A stretch of DNA of 64,000 nt from an uncultured Methanosarcinaceae archaeon (GCA_963847185.1 CAWJYV010000002.1:64001-128000); one strand, 5' to 3'. Shown: positions 860 to 20,576, counted from the first letter of the stretch. The notes: a model not told the origin generated them from the sequence alone. A program made the numbers and translations.

Positions 860-1489
860 TCAAACATACTTGAACAGATCATCCCTTTTCATTTCATGCA
901 GCCTGTCCCGAAGCAGACTCTTTAAGGCTTTGAAGTCTCCTTTTTTGGCGCTAATCGGAGCTATCAAGTGCTTCCAGTTCTGCCATGGTGGCTCAAGTCC
1001 AAGACGGATAGAAACCTCATCAAGAAGAAGATCATACTCATTTTCTTTTACTTTGTCCATCTTGTTTGCAGCGATAATAGTGTCAATGCCTATTTCCCTC
1101 AGGAAATCAAACATCTCAATGTCTACAGGAATTTGATCCTTCAAGTCCCAGCGGTCAACTATTTGCGGGAAAACCGGACCGTCTATTACAAGGACCCCGA
1201 TTTTGATCCTTTCAGCATTTTTTTCGATATAGCGTATTGTTTGGTCTTTTACAATATCCTGCTTCCTGTCTTTTACTCCGCTCATGAACCCGAAACCCGG
1301 CATATCCGTGATCAGCAGGTCCGAAGCCTGGGCGTGTCTGGGACGCAGGGTAACACCTGGGCGTTTTCCTACCCTAACTTTTGCCCCGAAGAGCTCCCTC
1401 AGGAGAGAGGACTTGCCTACATTTGAACGTCCTACGAAAATAATTTCAAGGTTTATGCCGCTTTCAGCTGCAGTTTTAGTTGTTTCCAT
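860..1489 (-). CDS. engB: GTP-binding protein EngB (YihA/YsxC family)
   Basis: G1 GRSNVGKS, G2 PGVT, G3 DMPG, G4 NKMD, G5 SAK. Confidence 0.92.
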   Translation of the reverse strand: METTKTAAESGINLEIIFVGRSNVGKSSLLRELFGAKVRVGKRPGVTLRPRHAQASDLLITDMPGFGFMSGVKDRKQDIVKDQTIRYIEKNAERIKIGVLVIDGPVFPQIVDRWDLKDQIPVDIEMFDFLREIGIDTIIAANKMDKVKENEYDLLLDEVSIRLGLEPPWQNWKHLIAPISAKKGDFKALKSLLRDRLHEMKRDDLFKYV

Positions 1490-1601
1490 TATATTTTACC
1501 TCATTTGCCTCTCCGATCTTTCCCCGGGAATGTATACTGAAATCATAAGCACCTTTTCTCTCACGGTATTCGGCTGCAAGTCCCACTCCATTTTGAACAT
1601 A
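1476..1601 (-). pseudogene. Displaced, internally deleted 3' fragment of the DHH phosphoesterase gene (attachment-site copy 1)
   Basis: Translates YVQNGVGLAAEYRERKGAYDFSIHSRGKI-GEANEVKYNGNN*. This matches the intact DHH gene (YGQKEVGIAAEYRERRGAYDLSIRSRGKI...FDKK) and overlaps the engB start codon. Confidence 0.85.
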
Positions 1602-1875
1602 ATACAGTTAGAACCTGCATCCTATTATTGCCGTGAATTTTAGAAGTAGATGATAATCAGGAAGGTCTTAAAGATGACATTTTGATGATAGAATACTTAG
1701 ATCCTATATAAAATTCCCTTACTTCTTAGTACCATACCTCCTCCAAGAATGATTCTAAGGCTATATGAAAGGTTCAAAAATCCAGCGAATAGTTTTGGTA
1801 TTCTTTGAAAGTCTCGTAAAGCCGTAAATATCCAGACTTAATACAGGAAAAAGTAAAAGATGGAATTACTGTTTT

Positions 1876-2244
1876 TTAAAAACTGAATAAATTAGTCTGT
1901 TTCCTCTCTTCCGGAATATTCCAGCCATTCAAATTAAAAATGTCTAACGCAATCCGTCTAGCTGTGATATTACCGTCTTCATATCTCTTAACTACATCCG
2001 GCCTTTCAGCCAGATAAATTAGAACGTTCCCATGACAAGGAGACGGAGAACACCAACACGCAAGAGTTTTATTATCAAGTGTTCCAAGGTCATTTAAGAG
2101 CCTGTTATTTTCTAGAAGATAGAAAACATATTTCCAAATTACGAGTAATCTACTCTTCTCAGAATTCATTTTGAAGGGGTTACCCCATTTAGATTTTCTA
2201 TCAACGCGTACATGCAGCCCAGGAACACAAGACGTATTATGCAT
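1876..2244 (-). CDS. DUF4326-like protein (common in viruses and mobile elements)
   Basis: Motifs RKSKWGNPF and KTLACWCSPSPCHGNVL. Confidence 0.8.
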   Translation of the reverse strand: MHNTSCVPGLHVRVDRKSKWGNPFKMNSEKSRLLVIWKYVFYLLENNRLLNDLGTLDNKTLACWCSPSPCHGNVLIYLAERPDVVKRYEDGNITARRIALDIFNLNGWNIPEERKQTNLFSF

Positions 2245-2270
2245 GTTTAGAAGAGTTGTCCCATTGATGT

Positions 2271-2633
2271 TTATCCCTCAGTCCCTTCGCGTCTCATATG
2301 GGTGGGTTGGCCTCCATGTGCTGCCTTCTCAAGCGCGTTTATCTGTTCTGCTAGCTCGTTAAGCTGTTCATGAAGAAAGATAAATTCAGCTGTTCGTTTC
2401 TGTAATTCATCTCCTTGATCTGTGTCCTTCTTTGATTCTTTTTCCAACTCTGCCAAATTCTTGATAATATAATCGCAAGTGGGATTCGGACAGGTCCAGC
2501 CAGATTTGACAAAACGTTGTTTCCCGTCTACTAATTCACGGATGTAATTTCTTTTAAGGTATTCACCACATTTCGGACATATTGGTTTAGGAGTTGCCCC
2601 CTTTTGTCCCTGCCTTCGTTTTGGTTCAGTCAT
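2271..2633 (-). CDS. Small zinc-ribbon protein with C-terminal coiled coil
   Basis: CPKC...CPNPTC pairs and a heptad-like tail (LNELAEQINALEK). Confidence 0.65.
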   Translation of the reverse strand: MTEPKRRQGQKGATPKPICPKCGEYLKRNYIRELVDGKQRFVKSGWTCPNPTCDYIIKNLAELEKESKKDTDQGDELQKRTAEFIFLHEQLNELAEQINALEKAAHGGQPTHMRREGTEG

Positions 2634-2784
2634 TATTTACTCTCGTAAATTTTTCTTTACCATATCTCGTAAAGTCGTTTTTCTCTTCTGTTGCATTGCT
2701 TATTTCTTCTTCCCATAGGACTCAGTTATGTCCTCTTAAATCGCCTCTAATTCAATCCTAATTTTAGTAGATCTTACTAGCCAT

Positions 2785-2997
2785 TTAATCTAATTCAATT
2801 AAATTATGGATCAATAATAAGGCTGCTACCTCATTTAGTGTCAATTTAAGTTCTGACTTTCCATGAAATAATTCATCGTGGATCGCAATTAAATACCTTT
2901 TATTCGGCGGAATATACCAATAAGGATGTGATAAAACTCCATTTTCGTAGATTAATGCCAGTTCATCTATTTTAGCTAAAACAGTCTTTCGATCCAT
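2785..2997 (-). CDS. Hypothetical 70-aa protein, first gene of island module 1
   Basis: Intact ORF with a diverged homolog at 10969-11094 that shows mostly conservative changes. Confidence 0.65.
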   Translation of the reverse strand: MDRKTVLAKIDELALIYENGVLSHPYWYIPPNKRYLIAIHDELFHGKSELKLTLNEVAALLLIHNLIELD

Positions 2998-3261
2998 AAT
3001 CCCTTCGGCTAATAATTCTTATGGTGTCTTAAGTTACTTTATAACTAATAAACGTCCTTTGACATTAAGTTTCTCTTTTGGATTAATATTTCTCCACTTA
3101 ATACAACACATTACTTGATTTCCCAAAAATAGAATTTTTCGTAACTATTCAGTTAACGGAGTTAACAAAAATTTTATATTACTTCTTTCAGAAAACAGGA
3201 GAATTTCTTTAAGTTAAGTTCAGGAAGAGAATAATAAAACTGCATCAAGGAGTCTTTATAT

Positions 3262-3369
3262 CGCTTTCAGCTGCAGTTTTAGTTGTTTCCATCAATTTTC
3301 CATCATATCTTCCTCATTTGCCTCTCCTATCTTCTTATCAAAATCTCCTATCTTCTTATCAAAATCTCT
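3262..3369 (-). repeat. Attachment-site copy 2: DHH C-terminal codons plus the first 10 codons of engB
   Basis: 3262-3292 is identical to 1459-1489 (31 bp, METTKTAAES). 3293-3369 encodes RDFDKKIG-DFDKKIGEANE, with a 21-bp tandem duplication at 3324-3365. Confidence 0.85.
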
Positions 3370-3371
3370 GA

Positions 3372-3488
3372 CAGGCTGTCTGAGAATTATTGCCAGTAAT
3401 ACAAAAATGCTGAACAGAAAGCAAATATGACCTTAAAATCAAAAAAAAGGAATTCTGTAATTATCTCTGGTAATTGTCGGCCAGCCTC
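3372..3488. mobile_element. Putative MITE / IS-end remnant
   Basis: Imperfect terminal inverted repeat CAGGCTGTCTGAGAATTA versus GAGGCTGGCCGACAATTA (14/18) around a non-coding interior. Confidence 0.4.
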
Positions 3489-3803
3489 TTTAGGGTGGGG
3501 TAGCCGTACGCAATTTGATTTTCTACAATAGCCTACTTGGGTTAACCTTGCGCTGACATACAAAACTGATTAATAAGCATGGGGGTACTACTGCACACTA
3601 AGGCTGACCAGATTAGAAATTAAATGAGAATATGCACAAGATGCATCCCAATTGCAGGAAATGTGCATCCAGTTCTTTACAGGAATATGGGTTTCTCAAG
3701 GCACGAAGCCTTTTCACTTCTTAGGATGGTATGGAAGCTGCCTGAAAGAAACCTGTAATACCGGATGTAAAATTGAGGGATTTACTACTTTGACCGTCGT
3801 CAC

Positions 3804-4895
3804 TTATTTCCCAAACAGATAGGGTGAGAGCTTAGCACTTATCAAAGCAGCTACGACACCAATAATTATCCAATCTAGATTCGTAGAAGGTTGTCTTAGT
3901 AACATAGATATTACAAAACTAAGTATACCAAACACAATTAAGGCAACAATAGCTACAGCAATTCCCTGTTCAAGCCAAGAAGATTCTTCTGTAGGAGTAG
4001 GAGATGATATATTTGGACTTTTAAACTGGCCGAAGGCAAAAGAACCATATCCTGTATTTACCGTGTCTGTAACTTTATTAGTGTCAGTGTCAATTACAGA
4101 AACAATGCCATCGGAGTTAACCACATACACTTTTGAGCCATCAGGATTAGCGATAACTTCAAAAGGATTGTTATCTACATCCACAGTGGCTGTAACTTTA
4201 TTAGTGCCAGTGTCAATTACAGAGACAGAGTTGCTGCCCCAGTTCGCCACGTATACATTTGTTCCATCTGGCGTAACTGTTAATCTGCAAGGAGTATCCC
4301 CTACCGTTACACCGGCTGTAATTGTGTTAGAAGCTATATCTATTAGAGAGACCGTGCCGTTTAAACAATTCGTTATGTATAGCATTTTCCCATCTGGAGT
4401 TATAGTAATTCCATGATGATGAGTATGTCCAACAGGTCTCTTATTCGTAACTTTATTCGATTTAGTATCAACTATATATATATTATAATCATTTTCGTCT
4501 TCATCTACTACGTATACATTTTTCCCGTCTGGACTGACTGCAATTTCCCCAGGGCTCTTTCCTACTTTTACTGTGGCTGTAACCTTATTGGTTGAAGTGT
4601 CAATCACAGAAATAGTGCCACTGCCAGTGTTTGCTACATATACTTTTTTTACATCTGGGCTGACTGCAATTCCAGAAGGATATTTTCCTACATCAATTGT
4701 AGTCGTAAACCTGTTGCTTGAAGTATCAAACACAGAGACAGTGTCGTTTTGTGGATTTGTAAAATACATATAGGAAGTTGCTGATGAGGTGTTCTGCGCA
4801 GAAGATACTGATACAGCAAAAGGACAAATAATTAAAAATAAAAGAAGGATCATTGAAACTAAAACGATTGAATATGGGCTTATTTCTTTCTTCAT
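3804..4895 (-). CDS. YVTN-repeat beta-propeller surface protein with signal peptide and C-terminal membrane anchor
   Basis: Repeated P.GIAVSPDG.KVYVAN..S.TVSVIDT units, hydrophobic N-terminus, two C-terminal hydrophobic helices. Confidence 0.9.
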   Translation of the reverse strand: MKKEISPYSIVLVSMILLLFLIICPFAVSVSSAQNTSSATSYMYFTNPQNDTVSVFDTSSNRFTTTIDVGKYPSGIAVSPDVKKVYVANTGSGTISVIDTSTNKVTATVKVGKSPGEIAVSPDGKNVYVVDEDENDYNIYIVDTKSNKVTNKRPVGHTHHHGITITPDGKMLYITNCLNGTVSLIDIASNTITAGVTVGDTPCRLTVTPDGTNVYVANWGSNSVSVIDTGTNKVTATVDVDNNPFEVIANPDGSKVYVVNSDGIVSVIDTDTNKVTDTVNTGYGSFAFGQFKSPNISSPTPTEESSWLEQGIAVAIVALIVFGILSFVISMLLRQPSTNLDWIIIGVVAALISAKLSPYLFGK

Positions 4896-4920
4896 TTGCT
4901 CTCACACATCAATATGAATT

Positions 4921-5128
4921 TTTTCGATATTAGTATAATTAATCGAAGTATATACAAATTTAGTAACCATATTTTAAATGTATTCAATTAATCCATATTT
5001 TTATAAAAATTCTGAAAATATTCGTTTTCGATATTAGTATAATTAATCGAAGTATATACAAATTTAGTAACCATATTTTAAATGTATTCAATTAATCCAT
5101 ATTTTTATAAAAATTCTGAAAATATTCG
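4921..5128. repeat. Perfect 104-bp tandem duplication
   Basis: 4921-5024 equals 5025-5128. It lies directly upstream of the YVTN gene. Confidence 0.9.
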
Positions 5129-5236
5129 AATTTTGCAGCTATGACTTATTTCAGAGGTTAATGGAAGAAGCACTATTTGCAGCAGATGAATACAAGATTC
5201 TGATGTAGTGGAATAAGATCATAAGGTACCGAAGCT

Positions 5237-6282
<1,046 letters not shown>

Positions 6283-6625
6283 ATTTTAAAGAAAAGTGAT
6301 AAGCATTTCACCCTAAATATCCATGTTTTGGAGAGGGTTAAAGCTGGGGAAAAATTAGTTTTGGAGGGGCAGATTAAGGATTAAGAGGGGTTAAATTTTA
6401 ATTATGGAGGTTAGGGGCTAAGTTTTAAGGTTAAGGGCTAAAGAGGAGAATCTACATTATATGCACCTAACCTTATGTACTATCTGACAGTCCCTGTTGA
6501 AATTTTTTACCTATGTCAAACCAAATTAGTTTTGACTCATTATAAGCTCTAATTACATTTGCTCTGGTGAGAAGCTATCAAGAATATATTCCATAATTAA
6601 TTTGCCATGACACTAGGCTTAATGA

Positions 6626-9600
6626 TTATCCTTGTTGTTCTATTCTCGCTCCGCGATCTAATAAGAATTGTAATAATGTTTGCTTTTCCTTTTGGTCCTG
6701 TCCAGAACATTTAATCTCTTGATAAAGCCCAGAAGCTCCCTCTATCTGCATATCCTGACAGTTCGTTTTTGAGATTAAGTTGGCTATACAATGTTGAATT
6801 TTTAGGTTTTCCGTATCTATTTCTAATATTTGAATCTTTGAATTATAAAGAATTGCGAGAAAACGACCGTCAAAACTAATCTTCTGATCTCGGATAAGTT
6901 GCTTAATTTCCAATAATGTAACCATTTTATTTTTATTTAGATCATGTAATGTCAATTTTGCACGGCCTGTCATTAATTCTTCCAATTCTCCCAATTCTTC
7001 TTCTATATCAATTATATAAGATCCGTCTGGACTCAAACTAAATCTATGTTCATGATTTTTAAAATCAAGTGAATAAATTGGTTCAAAATTAGGATAAGTC
7101 CAAACTAAAATCTTGCGATTTATATCTTCATATTTTTCAGAAAATCCATTATAAGTTATAGTTGCTCCAATGATATCCTGATTCGCGGTCATTTGAAGAT
7201 CATAAATGTTTTTTGCATCTTTTACAACAAAAGTGGAGATAAGATCTTGGTTTTCCCAGTTCCACGTTCTAATTTCTCCACCATATCCTGTTGACAATAC
7301 CAATTTTTCATCATTTATTGGATATGCCGCATTGCACCATCCAGGTTGAGCCTCAAATGAAGATAATTCAATACCACTTAAAGCATCCCAAATTTTGAGA
7401 ATTCCTGTTCCTCCATGACTTGATGAGATGTATCTTCCAGATAGTGAACAATATAGATTATTAGTCATCTTTACAGGCTCGCAATTTAATGATTTACCTG
7501 TCTTAACATCAAAAATAAGAATACTATCTTTATTAAATGAAGTAAGTGCGAAAAGGTCTGTATGAGTAATCTCGCAAATCATACCATATAAATCAGGATA
7601 GTCGATTTTAGTTTGAAAGGTAGAAATTAGTTGACCTGTTGATGCGTTCCAAATCCTAATGCTGCCATCACTTACATATGCTACTATACGTTTTCCATTA
7701 TTACACCAAGTGAAATCCCTTATTTCGGGGTCATCTATCCGAATCCCATCCAAAATGGAATTTTTTAGATTTGTGCGAAGTAATAAATTACCAGAGAGTT
7801 GAGAATTTGTTAAGTTACAATCATTCATTTTTGATTCAATCATGCTACATTGGTGAAAAAAAGAAAATGATAAATTGCTGCAATTAATATTGGCTCCATT
7901 CATATTACATCTTGTCAAATTAGAGTGAGATAAGTCACTCCCGATCATACATGAATTTTCAAAAGAGCAATCTGTGACTCTACACTCTTGAAGACATATT
8001 TTCTCAAGATTAGAAGATGTAAAATCACAATCCTCTAAATTTGCACCCTTTAATATAGTATTAGCTAAATCAATTCCTGCAAAAGATTTTCTTTTCGTTT
8101 GCATTAATGAAGCCGCATTTCCACCAGTGTAATTAATGGATTCCAAGCTTTTGTCACGTGTAAAATAAATTAGATTCAATAATTTTTCAGTAGAACTATT
8201 CGATAGCATCTCACGCAAAAATTTGTAGACTGCTCCCATCTGTTCATGTGTAAGAGGAATCAGACCAAAAACGTCTGTTAATTCAGTAATATTTTTTGCT
8301 TTAAAGGGTATAGAACATTTTTTTCCATCTGTTCCAAAATAAGTCTTCGAAAAAACTTCATCTAATATATCTAAATCTAATGTAAATTTCAATGCCACAA
8401 AATATTCAGCTAGGCTTTTATGTGCAAACTCATAATAACCAACAGCGTTTCGATGTAAAAGTGTTTGATTACGTAAATCAAAGTCCCAAGTGTCAAGTTC
8501 ATGCTGATCTTTTATACTTTTGCCAAAATAAGTTTGTATTCTTTCAGGGATTAATTTATAGTTAATACTCAAATTCCCGGTTTTGATCATCTCCCATGCC
8601 AACTCACACAAGAAATATAATTTATCAGTAGTTGTTGTAAATGTGCGCTTTGTCTCAATGTTGCGTAAAAGTAGCTTGTTAGTAGCATAAAGATAAACTT
8701 GGGCTTGGTTTTCTAGTATATCCTCATTTACTTCATCTAAAGCTGCTAGTAGCAACTCTATAAGAAGTGGTTTTCGTGCCATAGCAGCTAAGTTTTCTTG
8801 ATTCAATATCTTGTCGGCAACAATAGATCCCTGCTTATCTCCTCTCTGCTTGATAATAACATCACGTATTTGATCATCGTTAAAATGTTCCAAGTAAAGT
8901 ACCTCAAACTTAGGTGGAGACAATACAATAGTACTTCTCCCATACTCTTTTCCAGTTAGTATTTTTTCGGATTCTTTTGCCCACCTAAAGTACTCAGTTC
9001 TGCTAGTGAGTATCACTTTACTGTTATCATCTACCAATTCGGCTAATTCCCAAAAATTATCCACTACAGTTTGGTAATCCACCTGTCGAGCCATTTCATC
9101 GAAACCGTCTAAAATTAGAAGCAATTTCCCTTGACGATTCATTTCTTTAAAGGCATTGTAAGCGCTCCCAACAAACGGCAGTTTGTATTGTTCAAGCAAT
9201 GCATCATTTATCAGTTGTTGCACTGTAGTAGCTTTATTAAAATTACGCAGAGTGATTAGTAATGGGAGTCTTTGTTTAACCGGATCTTTAAGATAGCGAT
9301 TGAGCTGAATATAAGCATAGTGTCTACAGAACCAAGTTTTTCCAGTACCGAATTCGCCTAATAACGAAATATGGGTTTTTCCTCTCTCCATTAACCAGTC
9401 ATCTATATAGCTATCTAGACTCGAATATTCTTCCCTTGCCTCTCTTTCATCTTCAATTTTCTCTTTATAGCAACCAATATCAACGTACAGCTCTGGAATG
9501 TGTTCTTTTTCTACCAAAGATTTTAAGGTATCAAAATACTGTCCCCATACTTTTTGTCTCAAAAATTCGTTAAGTGTGAAAACTTCGAAAGCATTGTCTT

Positions 9601-10864
9601 CGCTAGCACGTACTCTAGCGCTTTGTGAAACACGTTTATCACTGATCAACCATCCCTGCGGGATTCTTCGATTGAGTAACCCATCTAGATCGTTTACGTC
9701 TTTCTCGCTAATCTCTCCCCCAATACATCTTATTAGCAAGTTCTGCTTAAAGGGATTAACCGTTTTGATATCTACAGTTCTTTCATCAGAACGGTTGAAC
9801 TCAATTACTTCAAATTTAATAACTTGTAGCCACATTTTGACTTCATCAGCCAGAGATATTAAAGGATCATTGCATTTTTGAAGATTCTCTAAAATGCCGG
9901 TTATTTCTATAGGTAATTTTTTCGAATAATTGTACTCTTCGACTTTCGAATCATTATCAATTAGAATTTGAATACTTTCTCTTGACAAAACATCCAATAA
10001 TACTTGGTTTTTGCTTTTAAAACCCTCGATGTATTCTTGCTGTATTAGTAAACCGTAGTTCCTCATGTCTTCTGGATGAAGTGCTATTTTCAGAAGTATG
10101 TGGTTTTTATCACTGAAGCTGATAGTAGTAAGGTTGTGAAGCCACCAATACAAACTACTGTGCGGATCAAATGAAAAATTTAATACAGTATCTATGGATA
10201 CTCGATTACTATCAATATCCAATTCGTCTGAAAAACGTAAGAGTGCAGCAACCAACTTTTTTCTCATTTCTATGTGGAGAGTAAAATTACTTGCACAGCT
10301 TGTTATTGGTAATTTGGAGTGATATTTGCACACATCCATTAAGTCTGAAATAAGAGTGTAGTGAACTGTTTGAATTGCAGGGCCAAGATTGGTTTTACCT
10401 GTTGTATATGCATATGAAATCCAAGCAGCAGATAGAAATTGGTGATTTTTTCGGATAGAGTTTTGTTCTTCAATGCTGTAGTTACTCGCAACTTTCGCAG
10501 TAAAATCTACTTCGAATTCTGCACCAAGTTTTTCTGCTTGCTCTTTTATTTGAGGAAACTTTACTACATCACACTGCATTCCTATATCATGTAAATAAAT
10601 GCCAGCAAGGAGAATATACATTTCATACTCAGTTAGTTCTTTACCGCCATTTACTTCTAATAATTTATCTGCAAAGCCTACTAGTCTTTCACAGTGTTTA
10701 TTTCCATGATCTGTATAATTTCGTACTATTCGTGGAGTATCTTCACTCCACAGTTTCTCCATAGATTCACGAATTAATCCCAGACTTGTGCGTAAATTTC
10801 TATTTTTAATGTATTTTTCGATGAGATCTACTTCAGCATCTGTGAACTCGGCCAAGAAAGACAA
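6626..10864 (-). CDS. NLR-like STAND protein: HD-type domain, inactive REase-like fold, NACHT NTPase, pentapeptide repeats, WD40 repeats
   Basis: HD motifs TDHGNKH / YLHDIGM / KYHS / LLRFSDELD; Walker A GEFGTGKT; Walker B LILDGFDE; ILTSR; PLL; FAHKSLAEYFVA; A/S-N-L pentapeptides; DGSIRIWN, GILKIWD and GEIRTWN WD40 repeats. Confidence 0.85.
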   Translation of the reverse strand: MSFLAEFTDAEVDLIEKYIKNRNLRTSLGLIRESMEKLWSEDTPRIVRNYTDHGNKHCERLVGFADKLLEVNGGKELTEYEMYILLAGIYLHDIGMQCDVVKFPQIKEQAEKLGAEFEVDFTAKVASNYSIEEQNSIRKNHQFLSAAWISYAYTTGKTNLGPAIQTVHYTLISDLMDVCKYHSKLPITSCASNFTLHIEMRKKLVAALLRFSDELDIDSNRVSIDTVLNFSFDPHSSLYWWLHNLTTISFSDKNHILLKIALHPEDMRNYGLLIQQEYIEGFKSKNQVLLDVLSRESIQILIDNDSKVEEYNYSKKLPIEITGILENLQKCNDPLISLADEVKMWLQVIKFEVIEFNRSDERTVDIKTVNPFKQNLLIRCIGGEISEKDVNDLDGLLNRRIPQGWLISDKRVSQSARVRASEDNAFEVFTLNEFLRQKVWGQYFDTLKSLVEKEHIPELYVDIGCYKEKIEDEREAREEYSSLDSYIDDWLMERGKTHISLLGEFGTGKTWFCRHYAYIQLNRYLKDPVKQRLPLLITLRNFNKATTVQQLINDALLEQYKLPFVGSAYNAFKEMNRQGKLLLILDGFDEMARQVDYQTVVDNFWELAELVDDNSKVILTSRTEYFRWAKESEKILTGKEYGRSTIVLSPPKFEVLYLEHFNDDQIRDVIIKQRGDKQGSIVADKILNQENLAAMARKPLLIELLLAALDEVNEDILENQAQVYLYATNKLLLRNIETKRTFTTTTDKLYFLCELAWEMIKTGNLSINYKLIPERIQTYFGKSIKDQHELDTWDFDLRNQTLLHRNAVGYYEFAHKSLAEYFVALKFTLDLDILDEVFSKTYFGTDGKKCSIPFKAKNITELTDVFGLIPLTHEQMGAVYKFLREMLSNSSTEKLLNLIYFTRDKSLESINYTGGNAASLMQTKRKSFAGIDLANTILKGANLEDCDFTSSNLEKICLQECRVTDCSFENSCMIGSDLSHSNLTRCNMNGANINCSNLSFSFFHQCSMIESKMNDCNLTNSQLSGNLLLRTNLKNSILDGIRIDDPEIRDFTWCNNGKRIVAYVSDGSIRIWNASTGQLISTFQTKIDYPDLYGMICEITHTDLFALTSFNKDSILIFDVKTGKSLNCEPVKMTNNLYCSLSGRYISSSHGGTGILKIWDALSGIELSSFEAQPGWCNAAYPINDEKLVLSTGYGGEIRTWNWENQDLISTFVVKDAKNIYDLQMTANQDIIGATITYNGFSEKYEDINRKILVWTYPNFEPIYSLDFKNHEHRFSLSPDGSYIIDIEEELGELEELMTGRAKLTLHDLNKNKMVTLLEIKQLIRDQKISFDGRFLAILYNSKIQILEIDTENLKIQHCIANLISKTNCQDMQIEGASGLYQEIKCSGQDQKEKQTLLQFLLDRGARIEQQG

Positions 10865-10968
10865 CTCCTACAGAGCTACTGTGTAGAATCTTATATATAC
10901 ATTATTAAATTTAGTTTTGTGTAGTTTTTGGGAATGGACAATTTTGTAGAATAGTCGAAAGATATAAG

Positions 10969-11094
10969 TTAACTTTTAGCCTTTTTTAAATTCCTTTTGT
11001 TCGGGGGGATATACAACTAAGGATGTGATAAGATTGCATTTTCAAAAATTAATGCTAATCCATCTATTTTGACCAAGACAGTCTTTCGGCCCAA
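10969..11094 (-). pseudogene. Truncated paralog of the 70-aa ORF at 2785-2997
   Basis: Reads (M)GRKTVLVKIDGLALIFENAILSHP*LYIPPNKRNL versus MDRKTVLAKIDELALIYENGVLSHPYWYIPPNKRYL. Upstream DNA is also homologous (11095-11186 versus 2998-3094). Confidence 0.85.
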
Positions 11095-11285
11095 AATCCC
11101 TTCGAGTAATAGTCATTACACTTCTCCAAACTTCTTTTATAACTGATAAATACTATTAAGATTCTCTTTTGGATTAATGTTTTCTCTTTATATTCTTTTA
11201 TTAGCTCCTTTATCCAGTCTTTTAAAGTCGCCATTACGTTTAATCCTGGGAATGAATTTGGCAGGGAACTTATATCATATTTTAC

Positions 11286-12260
11286 TCATTTGCCTCTCCG
11301 ATTCTTTTTATCAAAAGCTCTGAGGAAAGACTGAAGGCGTTTTTCGGGGATACGGGCTCCTGCTGCAAGAGGATGTCCTCCTCCGCTTCCTCCGAACTTA
11401 GGAGCAACAGAGCGGAGCAGACGGTTTATGTCAATTTTCCCTCGGGAACGGATGCTGAGATCATAAGCACCTCTTCTCTCGCGGTATTCGGCTGCAATTC
11501 CAACTTCCTTTTGACCGTACGAGGCTGCATAGATTGCGGCTTTTGAAATGGAGTTATTCGTATTTACAATATAAGCGCTATTTTTCAGTACTTCGACATT
11601 TTCTTTAACAAAAATCCGGACCTTTTCCTCTTTAAGCGCAGCTTCCCTGGCAAGTTCAAGAAGGCCAGAGATGTTCGAAGGGATAATATCATTTGAAAGA
11701 GGAGAAAGCAGATCTCTTTTAAATTCGTAATCTCTCCCTTTGTGAATAATTGCCTGAATGAGAGTGCCTGCCTGGAAGTATAGACTTCTTTTGTCCCAAT
11801 CCCGAACCCAATTCTTTACATGAGGCGTGTTGTCACAGAAATCCCCAATAGCTCCGTAAATTGCTATCCTTCGCATGTCCCGGCTTAATTTCTTCTCAAA
11901 TACTCTGTAGGTCAGCTCGGAAGAGCATGTTTCAATATCATGGTAGAACCACTCTTCCTTCCTGCAGCTTTCCGGAAGCGGATGATGGTCAATGTAGTAA
12001 AGGTTGCATTTTTCAGCAAATTTATTTAGTACTGAATAGAGTTCTGAACAGTGCCGTTCATCAATTGCAATATCGCAGACAATGAGGGTTTCCACGTCTT
12101 CTATAAGATTTAATTTGTCAAGAAGATTGACAGGGCTGGTAAAATATACATATGCGTCCGGATAAGCTGTTTTTGCAATTGCACCGGAGCAAATCCCATC
12201 CGAATCTCCATGGGTAAAAATCAGAGTTTTCTCATTGAGCCGATTCTGGATGTCTTTCAT
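11286..12260 (-). CDS. DHH/DHHA1 family phosphoesterase
   Basis: Motifs HGDSDG, IDHH, GAIGD, SIRSR, GGSGGGH..AAG. Confidence 0.9.
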   Translation of the reverse strand: MKDIQNRLNEKTLIFTHGDSDGICSGAIAKTAYPDAYVYFTSPVNLLDKLNLIEDVETLIVCDIAIDERHCSELYSVLNKFAEKCNLYYIDHHPLPESCRKEEWFYHDIETCSSELTYRVFEKKLSRDMRRIAIYGAIGDFCDNTPHVKNWVRDWDKRSLYFQAGTLIQAIIHKGRDYEFKRDLLSPLSNDIIPSNISGLLELAREAALKEEKVRIFVKENVEVLKNSAYIVNTNNSISKAAIYAASYGQKEVGIAAEYRERRGAYDLSIRSRGKIDINRLLRSVAPKFGGSGGGHPLAAGARIPEKRLQSFLRAFDKKNRRGK

Positions 12261-12661
12261 GTTTTACTTCCTTTTTGTTGAGAGCCTTTGATTCCTTTCC
12301 TGTAGGAGCCTATCCCAAAACCTATTTTTTTCCATATCTATAGGAATTTCATAATTACTTTCCTGATCAGTAGCTCAATTAAATATTTTTAAGTTGAGAT
12401 TCAAAGAAGTAGTTTTTGAGTTTTGGGATCAGCTCTAGTTGTAATGAGAACTTAAATCTAAAAGAAGCTTGCATTAATCTTTTGTTTTCCTGAAACCTGG
12501 GGGAAAATAAAGTCAGAGATTAAATGTGATTAAACAAAAAGTAAAGAAGGAAATTAAGTAAGGAAGTAAATAAATCTCAGGTCAAGCGGTATAAATGAGA
12601 AAAATAAATGAGAAAATAGATGTTCCTGAGCCGGAAACATCCAAAATCCCACTGTATTTTT

Positions 12662-17054: not shown

Positions 17055-20000
17055 ATGAGCTCAACTAAAAAAACTAGTTTAATTGCTAATTTATTCGTCC
17101 ACATTGCTTTCTTAATATGTATTTTTTCAAGTTTTTTACCTGTGGCAGGAGCTATTGCAAACGAAGGATTGGTAATAGGAGATAACGGGACTTTTAATGT
17201 ACTCGATCTTGATGAGGCAATGGGAGAAAATGTGACCTCTGATTTACCAAGTCTTGATGAAGTACTAGCACAGGATCCTGTTTCTGTATCGGGTCTGATA
17301 GATAAAGGCAATTCTCTATATTTCCTGAGAGACTATGACTCATCCATAGGCTGCTATGACGAAGCACTTGAGATAGATTCCAATTCCTCAAAAGCCTGGT
17401 ATGGAAAAGGATGTTCTCTGGCAGAATTAAGAAAACACGAAGATGCAATTAATTCTTATGATAAAGCTCTTGAGACCTTTCCAGCTTCATCTGAGAACTG
17501 GTTTAATAGAGGCAATGAGTTTTATGACCTGAATAAGTATGTGGAGGCTATTAATTGTTATGATAAAAGCCTCACTGAAGACGAATATCTTTCTACAGTA
17601 TGGTTCCGAAAAGCTCGCTCTTTTGAGCAGCTTAATCAAAACCAGGAAGCTCTAACTTCTTATGAAAGAGCTATTGAACTGAGCTCTAATTCTTCTAGTG
17701 CTTTACATCAGAAAGGTATGGCTTATACCAGACTTGAAAAGTATGAAGAGGCAATGAGATGTTTTGACAGAGCCCTTAACATGACTCCTGATGACTATGA
17801 CCTATGGTACCAGAAAGGAGTTATTTTTGATAAGGCCTCAGAGTATGAAACTGCAATAGCTTGTTATGATAAGGCTGTCTCTTATAATCCTGATATGACA
17901 GAAGCCTGGTACAACAAAGGTTTAGACTTTGAGAATATTGGAATGTATCAGGAGGCTCTGACATGTTATGAGTCTGTTCTAATTTCAGGCCCTGAAAATC
18001 TTGGTGCTCTGCAGAGAAAAGGCTCATGCCTTGAGAAGTTGGGAAGAGACGAAGAAGCTCTCCAATGCTATGATCAGGTCCTGAATTATAGCCCTGATAA
18101 CAAAGAGGTATGGTATAGCAAAGGCCGCCTGCTTAATAAGATCGGAAACTACGATGCTGCAATAACCTGTTATGACAGAGCACTTAACCCGGATGCAGGA
18201 ATTATACTGGAAGACATAGACAGTGGCCTGCTTGAAAATCTTCAAGCTTACGAATCCACACTTCCTTCTTACCCCGAAGGACCTGAGTTTAAGTCTCCTG
18301 CGGTTAAGATCTGGTACGATAAAGGGCTGGCATTTGATAAGCTTCAAAACTACGAAGCTGCGCTTGAATGTTATAACAGTGTTACTAAAAACGAATCCGA
18401 ACATGCTGTAGTCTGGTATATTAAAGGGCTTGACCTTGACAGACTTGGAAGATACACGGAAGCTGCGGAGTGCTATGATAAAGCTCTGAATCTAAACTCT
18501 TCATATGCTAAAGTATGGTACAAGAAAGGCTCCGATTATTCAAAAGTTAATGATTATAAAGATGCAGTAAAAAGCTATGACGAAGCCCTTGCTATTGACG
18601 AAAATTATACACTTGCATGGTATGGTAAGGCTTTTGCCCTGGCAAAGATGGGAGAATACGAAGAAGCTCTTGAATGTTACGACAGAGTTCTTATCGTTGC
18701 TCCCTACAGTGCTGAGATCTGGTACAACAAAGGCCTTATTCTTGATCAACTCGAGAAGCCTGAAGAAGCTTCTCAATGCTATAACCAGGCTCTCGTAAGC
18801 AATTCTTCATTTTCCGCTGCTCGTTTCAAGCTGAGCAAAAACACGGATCTTATGTCAACAGAATCTTCATCCCAGCCAGTTGCAAATGATAGCTTTAATG
18901 TCAGTTCGTTAAGGTCACTTTCAGGAGCTTTCTTGCCTTATCTCCTGGACTATGAATATGCTAGCTCAGAAAACCATCCAGACATCTTCAAAAATCTGAA
19001 CTCCTTTGGTCCGGAATTCGGTTATGATGCAGCATGGTATGGGAAAGCTTCGGTATATAGTAAACTCGGAATGTACGAGGATTCCCTTACTTCTTATAAT
19101 ATGGCCCTTTCAATTAATCCTTCACGCAGTGAAGCCTGGTATGAAAAGGGCTCGACACTTGACAGGCTTGGAAGGAGCGAGGAAGCTTTAGAATGTTACA
19201 AGAAAGCTCTGGATCTCGACCCTCAGTCAAGCAGTGCATGGAATGGGATAGCGTCTACTGCAAGCGATCTTGGAAGATCTGAAGAGGCAGTTGGTTACTA
19301 TGATCAGATGCTTGCTCTTAACGCCAGCAATACCGAGGCGCTTTATGGAAAAGGCCTTGCCCTTTCAAATCTTGGAAGATATGATGAGGCTGTCTCCTGC
19401 TTCAGCACTCTCCTTAACTTAGAGCCCGAAAATATTGAGGCTCTTGAAAATAGAGCGCTTGCTCTGACAAAAGCAGGAAAATTCGAAGAAGCACTGACAG
19501 ACTACGATAAAATCCTGGAGCTCCAGCCTGACAATTCACAGGTCCTGGCTGAGAAAGCATCTTTATTTGAAGTGCTTGGAAGATATCAGGAGGCAGCTGC
19601 AAGTTATGAGAAGCTGCTTGAAATTTCTCCAGATAACAGAGAGATAATTTACAGGCAGGGGAAAGCTCTGGAACAAATGGGGGATTTCGAGGCAGCAATA
19701 GGCTGTTACGACAGGATTCTCGAGCTGGACCCGGCGAATATTGATGCTCTTAATAACAAAGGCTTTGCGCTCTCAAAACTGGAGAGATATCAGGAGGCTA
19801 TTGATAACTATAATAAAGCCCTCGAATATGACCCTAATAACGCTGCAGCCTGGTATCTCAAGGGATGTACATATTTCACAATAAAGAGTGATAAAACCGC
19901 CCTAGAGTGTTTCGACAAAGTGATAGAGCTTAAATCTGACTGCATAACGGCCTGGTATAACAAGGGATATATCAATAACGTAATGGGAGACGTTAACGCG

Positions 20001-20576
20001 TCAATCGAATGTTATAATAATGCCCTTGTAATAAACCCCAATGCACCCTCTGCCCTTTATAATAAGCGCTTTGCCCTCTACGCCATAAAGGATTTCGAAG
20101 GAGCTGAATCATGCAAGGTACAGCTCGATTCGGTTGATCCTGGCTTTGTGGAAGCCCTGGAAAAGAGAGGCACTAAATTCTTTATACCCAATACATATAG
20201 AGGCACACTGGATTATTCTCTACCCGCAAGATGGTATGGAGGAGAGGAAGTCTCCTCTGAGAACCTTAGCCTGAACATGACAAATGAGAACGTGACAAAT
20301 GTCCCTCAGCAACCAGAGACTAACTGGGAGTCCTATGAGAATCAGGAAAATAATAGTTCAGAGTATTATCCAGACTCTTACGAAGTCGATTCCGAAGCAG
20401 AAGGAAATATCGACAGCGGGTATTGGGATGATGTTCCAGAATCTAATGAGAGTCAAAACGAAACCGGGGAGTATACTGCCGGATCTGAGGAATATCAGGA
20501 TGAGGGATATACTGATGACTTTGATTCTCAAAACGAAACCGAAAACTGGTCTGTTCCGGAGCCCGATGAAGTCTAA
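17055..20576 (+). CDS. Large tetratricopeptide-repeat protein with N-terminal hydrophobic segment and acidic tail
   Basis: Many W..KG..L..LG.YEEA..CYDKAL repeats; D/E/N/S-rich C-terminus. Confidence 0.9.
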   Translation: MSSTKKTSLIANLFVHIAFLICIFSSFLPVAGAIANEGLVIGDNGTFNVLDLDEAMGENVTSDLPSLDEVLAQDPVSVSGLIDKGNSLYFLRDYDSSIGCYDEALEIDSNSSKAWYGKGCSLAELRKHEDAINSYDKALETFPASSENWFNRGNEFYDLNKYVEAINCYDKSLTEDEYLSTVWFRKARSFEQLNQNQEALTSYERAIELSSNSSSALHQKGMAYTRLEKYEEAMRCFDRALNMTPDDYDLWYQKGVIFDKASEYETAIACYDKAVSYNPDMTEAWYNKGLDFENIGMYQEALTCYESVLISGPENLGALQRKGSCLEKLGRDEEALQCYDQVLNYSPDNKEVWYSKGRLLNKIGNYDAAITCYDRALNPDAGIILEDIDSGLLENLQAYESTLPSYPEGPEFKSPAVKIWYDKGLAFDKLQNYEAALECYNSVTKNESEHAVVWYIKGLDLDRLGRYTEAAECYDKALNLNSSYAKVWYKKGSDYSKVNDYKDAVKSYDEALAIDENYTLAWYGKAFALAKMGEYEEALECYDRVLIVAPYSAEIWYNKGLILDQLEKPEEASQCYNQALVSNSSFSAARFKLSKNTDLMSTESSSQPVANDSFNVSSLRSLSGAFLPYLLDYEYASSENHPDIFKNLNSFGPEFGYDAAWYGKASVYSKLGMYEDSLTSYNMALSINPSRSEAWYEKGSTLDRLGRSEEALECYKKALDLDPQSSSAWNGIASTASDLGRSEEAVGYYDQMLALNASNTEALYGKGLALSNLGRYDEAVSCFSTLLNLEPENIEALENRALALTKAGKFEEALTDYDKILELQPDNSQVLAEKASLFEVLGRYQEAAASYEKLLEISPDNREIIYRQGKALEQMGDFEAAIGCYDRILELDPANIDALNNKGFALSKLERYQEAIDNYNKALEYDPNNAAAWYLKGCTYFTIKSDKTALECFDKVIELKSDCITAWYNKGYINNVMGDVNASIECYNNALVINPNAPSALYNKRFALYAIKDFEGAESCKVQLDSVDPGFVEALEKRGTKFFIPNTYRGTLDYSLPARWYGGEEVSSENLSLNMTNENVTNVPQQPETNWESYENQENNSSEYYPDSYEVDSEAEGNIDSGYWDDVPESNESQNETGEYTAGSEEYQDEGYTDDFDSQNETENWSVPEPDEV

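Follow-up and report, generated by a model that had tools for sequence, protein, structure and literature searches.

Experimental work described in the accessible text of the literature on signal transduction ATPases with numerous domains (STAND) and on bacterial NACHT (bNACHT) proteins concerns bacterial proteins. As laid out in the text of Kibby et al. (10.1101/2022.07.19.500537) available to us, bNACHT effectors comprise RNases, DNases, NAD-targeting domains, nucleotide-signal enzymes, and peptidases, with inactive domains marked as such; β-propellers and pentapeptide repeats are treated there as sensors of the "antigen-receptor type", and an HD domain is not named among the effector classes. 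Here we report the analysis of a gene for a protein resembling the nucleotide-binding leucine-rich repeat receptors (NLRs), located on the minus strand of a 64,000-nucleotide stretch (the window) of the genome of an uncultured Methanosarcinaceae archaeon (GCA_963847185.1, CAWJYV010000002.1:64001-128000). The genome carries mcrA, and the host is a methanogen of the Methanosarcinales. From its N terminus the protein comprises an HD-CE domain, an NA-iREase1 domain, NACHT with a winged helix, a pentapeptide β-helix, a seven-bladed WD40 propeller, and a conserved tail. The assignment of the gene to an uncharacterized HD-CE subfamily of NACHT NLR-like proteins, newly acquired by a methanogen, is well supported.

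Like the bNACHT proteins as presented in that source, the protein has a central NACHT, an N-terminal enzymatic effector, and C-terminal superstructure-forming repeats, and the effector varies between close relatives. The NACHT-associated inactive restriction endonuclease (REase) domain present here has its own Pfam family. The protein is unlike the bNACHT set in its archaeal host, in its HD effector, and in matching no PADLOC model, and the accessible text reports no test of an HD-CE member. With the antiviral STAND proteins of the Avs type (Nature 2026, PMC13581612) it shares, on the evidence of the article's accessible text, a single-gene effector-STAND-sensor plan, effector swapping, extensive horizontal transfer, and WD40 propellers as one of the sensor types; Avs sensors see conserved viral proteins. 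Most Avs sensors described there are, however, TPR-like, whereas the nucleoside triphosphatase (NTPase) here is of the NACHT clade and no Avs model in PADLOC matches. Neither "phosphohydrolase" nor "phosphodiesterase" appears in that article's main text.

The overall fold of the model also recalls Apaf-1 and the bacterial NB-ARC-WD40 proteins, in which a STAND NTPase is followed by propellers; in the Apaf-1 type, the propeller or propellers bind the trigger and release oligomerization. The present protein differs in having NACHT rather than NB-ARC, a single propeller placed after a pentapeptide helix, and an enzyme in cis as effector instead of a CARD adaptor. Fungal HET-E/NWD proteins likewise combine an N-terminal death or effector domain, NACHT, and WD40 and, like the gene described here, are accessory and polymorphic. 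Here the effector is HD-CE and not HET, and the propeller blades are old and diverged, without concerted repeat evolution. The HD nucleases Cas3 and Cas10 and the SAMHD1/dGTPase-type dNTPases are antiviral phosphohydrolase effectors built, like HD-CE, on an H...HD...D center. What sets HD-CE apart from them is a separate Pfam family, three conserved cysteines, and a β-rich C-terminal subdomain. In one passage of the accessible text of an eLife 2021 article, "the nucleotide phosphodiesterase HD domain" is mentioned as a possible effector. In the accessible literature we found nothing relevant on HD-CE as an effector or on HD-CE activity; supplementary tables may list family members.

Reading frame and domain architecture

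The gene is a single open frame of 1412 codons with TTG at 10864 as its first codon. Its GC content is 0.340 (0.268 at third codon positions, as against 0.37-0.47 in the flanking core genes), and the intact, AT-rich frame of the original prediction thus stands, with a refined start. Because the Met of homologues pairs with residue 4 of the 1412-residue frame in the alignment and a Shine-Dalgarno-like GGAG lies 9 nucleotides 5' of a second TTG at 10855, the latter codon is the likelier initiation site. It is probably the true start, giving a protein of 1409 residues.

From the DNA alone, the original prediction had read a full HD metal-binding set, a Mrr-like segment with a replaced (E/Q)xK motif, a NACHT module with intact Walker A and B motifs and FxHxSxxEYF, pentapeptide repeats, and a WD40 propeller. 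Curated profile models and structure prediction upheld all of these domain calls. The coordinates are given in Table 1.

The N-terminal module matches HD-CE (PF24391) over residues 48-266 (E 3.3e-28; 99.5-103.6 bits, cut-off 27). No other HD family in Pfam scored for it, even at E ≤ 10. The metal set, H53, H57, H92-D93, H141, H182, and D216, is complete, and in the alignments of homologues each of its residues is either invariant or conserved to at least 90%. Three cysteines of the module (C98, C179, and C190) are also conserved.

The following segment matches PF22722, "NACHT-associated inactive restriction endonuclease 1" (NA-iREase1), over residues 338-435 (E 2.7e-14 to 3.8e-16; 59.4 bits). 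It has TVDIKT (at 363) and IRCIGG (at 378), against a family consensus of VRCIGGE, so that R379-C380-I381 occupies the strand position of the catalytic (E/Q)xK; the R-C pair is kept across the family. The active-type model Mrr_cat (PF04471) remained below its cut-off (E 0.041; 14.4 bits against 21), and (E/Q)xK is absent. Judged by these residues, the REase fold is catalytically dead.

NACHT (PF05729) matches residues 499-626 with 31.1 bits against a cut-off of 26.7, and with 34.7 bits in a six-frame search of the genome. Walker A is GEFGTGKT (residues 503-510) and Walker B is LLLILDGFDE (residues 581-590); their G, K, T, D, G, D, and E are invariant in a 36-row alignment. The winged helix carries FAHKSLAEYF (residues 813-822), in which H815 is invariant. 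A winged-helix His is the ADP-contacting residue in NLRC4 according to the accessible text of 10.1101/2022.07.19.500537; H815 was matched to it by motif, without structural superposition. The residues for HD metal binding and for NTP binding and hydrolysis by NACHT are all intact.

The pentapeptide family PF00805 matches residues 925-1045 (E 1.3e-15), and solved pentapeptide proteins are matched at E 1e-12; NCBIfam matches this part of the protein alone. WD40-type propeller models of Pfam match residues 1040-1285. No tandem repeat was found in the DNA encoding the pentapeptide and propeller parts (6770-8104). The conserved tail that follows the propeller may fold back onto a conserved part of the protein.

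Residues 1-335, folded with a 32-row alignment, gave a model with a predicted local distance difference test score (pLDDT) of 91.4 and a predicted template-modeling score of 0.91, including the β-rich C-terminal subdomain. Foldseek returned no match for it at E ≤ 1e-3. All neighbors found by VIA-align have the HD/PDEase fold, with Z 8-12 in a range (below about 13) that is unremarkable for helical folds; the superfamily is confirmed and no subfamily is singled out. The best are C-terminal domains of PPX/GppA (Z 12.1, root mean square deviation 3.6, 182 aligned; and Z 12.0), followed by class I cyclic-nucleotide phosphodiesterases (Z 10-11), YhaM (Z 9.6), and HD-GYP (Z 8.5); the comparison with type I-D Cascade gave Z 7.7 and that with SAMHD1 Z 7.4. 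A search of the PDB with the HD-CE profile yielded nothing significant, Sm-E reaching E 0.14 (profile positions 219-282) and class I phosphodiesterases a non-significant E 0.8-1.5 over the H...HD stretch. The whole protein matched only pentapeptide and WD40 chains in the PDB sequence search. Leads in the ESM Atlas were all below 0.9, an "HD" cluster reaching 0.86, and HD-CE had no match in PHROGs.

The model of residues 336-1412 (pLDDT 78.5) comprises a small α/β domain, then a P-loop NTPase that includes helical and winged-helix elements, a ladder of single strands as is usual for a pentapeptide helix, a propeller of about 29 strands, corresponding to seven blades, and finally the short tail. 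The best fold match to this model is full-length Apaf-1 (3shf, E 5.6e-18; 3sfz, E 1.4e-17); seven-bladed propellers match as well, with template-modeling scores of 0.7-0.8 on the target. NB-ARC (PF00931) is not among the Pfam matches listed (25 of 28 families at E ≤ 1). The resemblance to Apaf-1 is one of overall fold alone.

Distribution of the family and acquisition of the gene

A word-indexed protein search found 188 homologues at E ≤ 1e-3. Most of the 120 listed contain HD-CE, NA-iREase1, NACHT, and pentapeptide repeats followed by nothing, WD40, TPR, or HEAT. The best full-length match, from a Ruminiclostridium metagenome-assembled genome (MAG), is 54% identical, and the best N-terminal match is 72% identical over 67% of the query. 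The family occurs in the Methanosarcinales and at least 10 bacterial phyla, patchily in both Archaea and bacteria. Relatives with 47-70% identity in the iREase-NACHT part come from a Methanosarcina MAG, a Methanosarcinales MAG, Ca. Argoarchaeum, and ANME-2, and, among bacteria, from Bacillota, Planctomycetota, Acidobacteriota, Chloroflexota, Abditibacteriota, Myxococcota, Pseudomonadota, and Aminicenantes. The accessible text of Dyrka et al. (10.1101/2020.01.06.895854) already reports that NLR-like architectures are abundant in Methanosarcina. With that abundance in print, its domains in Pfam, and at least 188 homologues, the gene is not a new category, and the rarity implied by the original prediction was overstated.

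A quick maximum-likelihood tree built from 27 rows places the query beside the Methanosarcina MAG (SH-aLRT 100), and Argoarchaeum beside the Ruminiclostridium sequence (SH-aLRT 95) inside a mostly bacterial group, so that an archaeal sequence has a sister from the Bacillota. The base of the tree forms a polytomy, and 10 of the 24 inner branches are open; neither a donor nor a direction of transfer can be given. A tabulated value of one change for archaea was set aside, as it leaves out 18 bacterial rows that belong to no group. The nearest homologue, that of the Methanosarcina MAG, is 70.6% identical over residues 1 to about 973; the similarity is confined to the gene, and the surroundings are unrelated.

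Conservation is distributed unevenly along the protein. Among 35 homologues, median identity is 82% in the nucleotide-binding domain, 60% in the helical and winged-helix part, 53% in the iREase domain, and 40% in the tail. It falls to 16% (range 13-40) in the propeller, the most variable part of the family. This gradient from NTPase to WD40 is like that of an immune receptor.

The N-terminal slot is occupied by different domains in different relatives. On the same NA-iREase1-NACHT-pentapeptide chassis, SIR2_2 replaces HD-CE in three proteins (P0113, P0116, and P0110) and an active-type Mrr_cat in one (P0112); in another (P0089) a TIR domain stands in front of HD-CE. The slot is thus interchangeable with known immune effectors, which backs the effector-NTPase-repeat logic proposed originally. 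HD-CE is itself shuffled. It has 1035 representatives at 50% identity (E ≤ 1e-3), with 198 reaching E ≤ 1e-30. The module lies at residues 1-330 almost without exception, in proteins that range from 184 to 1820 residues and include stand-alone forms of 323-355 residues. The partners in 50 scanned proteins were NB-ARC (8), NA-iREase1 (7), NACHT (6), HEAT_2 (4), TIR_2 (3), FGE-sulfatase (3), and GGDEF (2). In 8 genomes of the genus, an HD-CE module 49-54% identical to residues 3-335 is fused to NB-ARC-like/TPR frames, and three of these fusions (L010, L014, and L015) contain P-loop and hhhhD motifs, with TPR-like repeats at the end. In the genome described here, a second HD-CE protein (see below) joins the module to a GHKL ATPase. 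The accessory status of the gene and its lack of a conserved neighbor, described below, back the same logic.

The NLR-like gene is accessory and horizontally mobile, and it lies within an insertion. It was not found to be a conserved core gene: 13 of 59 genus genomes match residues 1-900 at E ≤ 1e-10, and the full length is present in this genome only. A DNA search did not find the gene body in G052, G032, or G004, of which G052 is the closest relative (flanks 94-98% identical; genome 81% complete). About 9.8 kb of DNA, comprising two tandem inserts (A and B), separates a GTPase gene from a DHH gene. Homologues of these flanks (860-1520 and the DHH/DHHA1 gene, 11280-12276) lie 0-400 bp apart in 10 of 12 congeners (G004, G008, G010, G016, G022, G028, G029, G032, G037, and G051), the other two being fragmented or not resolved. 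The old GTPase/DHH junction is now present in three direct-repeat copies. These triplicated repeats and the adjacent flanks of the congeners bear out the "integrated module" first proposed. The GC content is 0.356 in insert A, 0.331 in insert B, and 0.418 in the remaining window. Mis-assembly or a bin contaminant was rejected: repeats, flanks, and gene share one contig of a 10-contig, 99.8% complete genome, and the left part of insert B is 98% identical in G052.

In a sludge metagenome (X1) a contig joins position 1521 directly to 11343 at a depth of 709, and contigs 96-98% identical to the NLR-like gene have a depth of 4-6. By this difference in depth the empty site is the common form in that sludge. 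Two further runs (X2 and X3) hold only 151-nucleotide pieces of the gene at a depth of 2-3.6, too little to name a habitat. A small metatranscriptome (X4), with no contig over 6673-11259, carries no weight either way.

Proposed function and its alternatives

We consider it likely that this single polypeptide is a STAND/NLR-type intracellular sensor with a built-in weapon, serving antiviral defense or cell suicide. By analogy with bacterial NACHT proteins, Avs, and Apaf-1, the C-terminal repeats would hold NACHT closed and ADP-bound in the resting state. Binding of a viral protein, or of a host protein altered by the virus, to the pentapeptide/WD40 region would then let NACHT take up ATP, exchange its nucleotide, and oligomerize. 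The oligomer would bring the N-terminal HD-CE domains together and so switch them on, and the active domains would hydrolyze phosphoester bonds, which would stop the virus or the cell it has infected. Between effector and NTPase, the dead REase fold may serve as a scaffold or as a nucleic-acid-binding adaptor. Nucleic acid is our first guess for the target of HD-CE, a guess that could as easily prove wrong as right; a nucleotide pool or signal is a lesser though serious candidate. Consistent with a system made of one gene, none of the genes adjoining the homologues is kept throughout 20 loci. The repertoire of similar proteins in this genome, set out below, likewise gives the gene the look of an immune receptor.

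Several points weigh against this reading. The defense role, the trigger, and the HD substrate are drawn from analogy. The protein has no significant match in PADLOC-DB v2.0.0 (CARF_HD E 0.0037; mad8 E 0.03), and none of the four other proteins of the island has a match there. Among 150 neighboring ORFs at the 20 homologous loci the defense hits are few and mostly generic: 5 mad2-like methyltransferases, 3 mad3, 2 AriA, and 2 of the ThiF-type E1-E2, counts taken without a background rate. The defense-island setting that the original prediction proposed to look for is therefore not clearly enriched at the gene or at these loci. The nearest predicted folds of HD-CE appear phosphodiesterase-like rather than nuclease-like, in the unremarkable Z range given above, and the GGDEF domain in 2 of 50 HD-CE proteins hints at nucleotide signaling.

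These last features would also be expected of a regulatory STAND protein without an immune role, in which HD-CE is a phosphodiesterase for a signaling nucleotide (a cyclic nucleoside monophosphate, a cyclic dinucleotide, or a (p)ppGpp-like compound) and the repeats sense an intracellular cue, which the protein would link to the amount of that messenger. The PPX/GppA, class I phosphodiesterase, and HD-GYP neighbors, the class I enzymes as the sole, non-significant hints in the PDB profile search, the GGDEF partners, and the absence of a visible defense-island context all fit it. However, SIR2_2, Mrr_cat, and TIR occur in that slot on this chassis, and these effectors kill cells or deplete NAD rather than tune a signal; the gene is specific to one strain, has a foreign composition, and is set in an insertion; and its sensor is hypervariable beside a core that is 82% identical. 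On balance we find a purely regulatory role improbable. A phosphodiesterase acting on a second messenger might nonetheless serve as an effector of immunity, and to that extent this explanation merges with the sensor-and-weapon reading.

A switch for self/non-self recognition or programmed cell death in aggregate-forming Methanosarcina, responding to a cellular or kin-derived ligand in the manner of HET-E/NWD, appears decidedly improbable, even though the architecture is the same as that of the fungal NACHT-WD40 incompatibility proteins. The genome's repertoire could be taken in its favor. It includes genes for a CHAT-NACHT protein (767 residues), a NACHT protein with an unassigned N terminus, a NACHT-HEAT protein, and an Apaf-1-like TIR-NB-ARC-APAF1_C-WD40 protein, and a second HD-CE protein of 753 residues in which HD-CE (181.6 bits) is joined to a GHKL ATPase (HATPase_c_3, E 2.4e-7). 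In their accessible text, an eLife 2020 article (PMC7159879) and the Dyrka preprint tie such systems to multicellular prokaryotes, Methanosarcina among them. Yet the blades lack the high internal identity that drives the diversity of fungal allorecognition, their DNA being free of tandem repeats, and the family occurs in many bacteria of other phyla. The steps after the trigger would in any case equal those proposed for the antiviral sensor. That the gene is instead inert cargo, silent or heading for decay in a degenerating mobile element, we regard as highly improbable. The TTG start codon, the lack of an integrase frame in the island's ORF list, the decayed repeat element with its 63-69-residue frames, the 41-nucleotide poly(A), and the perfect 104-bp duplication would suit such a fate. 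Against this, a 4.2-kb frame has stayed open at 34% GC with all catalytic and structural motifs of the family intact, GGAG precedes the likely start, and the nearly identical contigs of the sludge metagenome show the gene to be kept in more than one strain.

Returning to the sensor with a built-in weapon, we also entertain a bolder version, which we think unlikely to be right: HD-CE would be an unrecognized class of immune effector, with a chemistry unlike that of Cas3-type nucleases and SAMHD1-type dNTPases and interchangeable across NACHT, NB-ARC, and GHKL ATPases. The pentapeptide helix, whose surface resembles DNA in shape in proteins of the Qnr/MfpA type, would lure viral proteins that bind DNA, and the propeller would be a second, fast-evolving sensor. 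If this were true, the protein would be the first tractable archaeal NLR with a new effector activity.

The inserts, their surroundings, and the meaning of the gene

Table 1. Coordinates of the NLR-like gene, its domains, the insertion, and related loci (window positions unless a G000 or L label is given; G000 is the genome described here)
Feature	Coordinates	Strand	Remarks
Whole ORF, NLR-like protein	6626..10864	-	Stop codon 6626-6628; 1412 residues, or 1409 from TTG 10855
HD-CE effector module, residues 1-335	9860..10864	-	Pfam match residues 48-266 (10067-10723)
NA-iREase1, residues 338-435, REase fold	9560..9853	-	R379-C380-I381 at (E/Q)xK position
NACHT module, residues 496-830	8375..9379	-	Walker A 9335-9358; Walker B 9095-9124; TSR residues 620-622
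Pentapeptide-repeat β-helix, residues 921-1045	7730..8104	-	PF00805; PDB matches; strand ladder in model
Seven-bladed WD40 propeller, presumed sensor, residues 1046-1365	6770..7729	-	Pfam, model, fold matches
Conserved C-terminal tail, residues 1366-1412	6629..6769	-	Family consensus NCxGMxIxGAxGL...RGAxL
Inserted DNA, about 9.8 kb	1518..11273		Two tandem inserts between GTPase gene (860-1489, -) and DHH gene (11286-12260, -)
Insert A	1518-3254		DUF4326 gene and two small ORFs
Insert B	3331-11273		YVTN-type membrane protein, 104-bp duplication, decayed repeat element, NLR-like gene
Junction repeat a	1452..1517		Real GTPase 5' end and 29-nucleotide copy of DHH 3' end
Junction repeat b	3255..3364		Copy of first ~45 nucleotides of GTPase (89%) and copy of DHH 3' end
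Junction repeat c	11274..11330		Real DHH 3' end; 90% match
Right-end module of insert B	10986..11190		Homologous to right end of insert A, 2889-3091
Decayed repeat element, insert B	5249..6286		87-89% copies on C6, C7, and C10 of same genome
Second HD-CE protein	G000:C2:45666-46421; L104:151-2409	-	~18 kb before window start, ~25 kb from NLR-like gene
Other NLR-like loci (L106, L107, L109, L111)	G000:C4:162045-162563; C10:421352-421846; C10:591428-591862; C8:413225-413665		

The right ends of inserts A (2889-3091) and B (10986-11182) are 80-93% identical, with a mean column identity of 73%, and junction repeat b holds a 21-nucleotide tandem duplication at 3323-3364. No integrase-like frame is present in the island ORF list, of whose small frames the Pfam scan covered 4. 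Insert A carries three genes on the minus strand: one for a DUF4326 protein (1876-2244), which also matches phrog_464 (function not assigned), one for a 120-residue protein with CxxC pairs and no family (2271-2633), and a 70-residue ORF (2785-2997). The DNA of the last is found elsewhere in congeners at 83-92% identity, and a degraded copy of it lies at the right end of insert B. The gene at 3804-4895 (minus strand) in insert B encodes a YVTN/YNCE-type β-propeller whose N terminus is signal-like and whose C terminus bears a membrane segment; DNA repeats of 123-132 bp lie within the gene, which is 98% shared with G052. It is followed by a perfect tandem duplication of a 104-bp AT-rich unit (4921-5128; 2.0 copies, 100% identical). 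The decayed repeat element has a 41-nucleotide run of A at 5761-5801, where the metagenome contigs break. Its motif YSRDYRTDKLK may be akin to IS1634/IS4-type transposases. A G-rich tract with degenerate GGTTAA/GGGCTAA-like motifs occupies 6290-6460. A 115-bp repeat at 6514-6628, just 3' of the stop codon of the NLR-like gene, has 91% copies at G000:C10:226299 and in G052.

Beyond the insertion, a repeat of about 130 bp at 12306-12440 has many 83-97% copies genome-wide and in G052, and a contig of X1 skips 12299-12436. It looks like a miniature inverted-repeat transposable element missing from other strains. A FilR1 domain is encoded by the first ORF in the window. A stand-alone HD protein (PF01966; 15749-16591, minus strand) gives weak matches to PADLOC Cas3 HD models (E 8.3e-6), is conserved in relatives, and is probably a housekeeping protein. 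At 17055-20576 (plus strand), a 1173-residue protein consists almost wholly of TPR (TPR_1, E 1.3e-181, 21 stretches).

STAND/NLR sensors are the clearest thread joining prokaryotic and eukaryotic innate immunity, and the main interest of the present gene lies in its HD-CE effector and its archaeal host. Methanosarcina has genetic tools and known viruses, and the gene offers a concrete, intact, and recently acquired archaeal NLR-like example in a genus in which such tools exist. Finding the substrate of HD-CE would annotate the whole family. An NTPase core kept at a median identity of 82% across two domains of life, beside a nearly unalignable sensor, amounts to a natural experiment in the rebuilding of a receptor after transfer.

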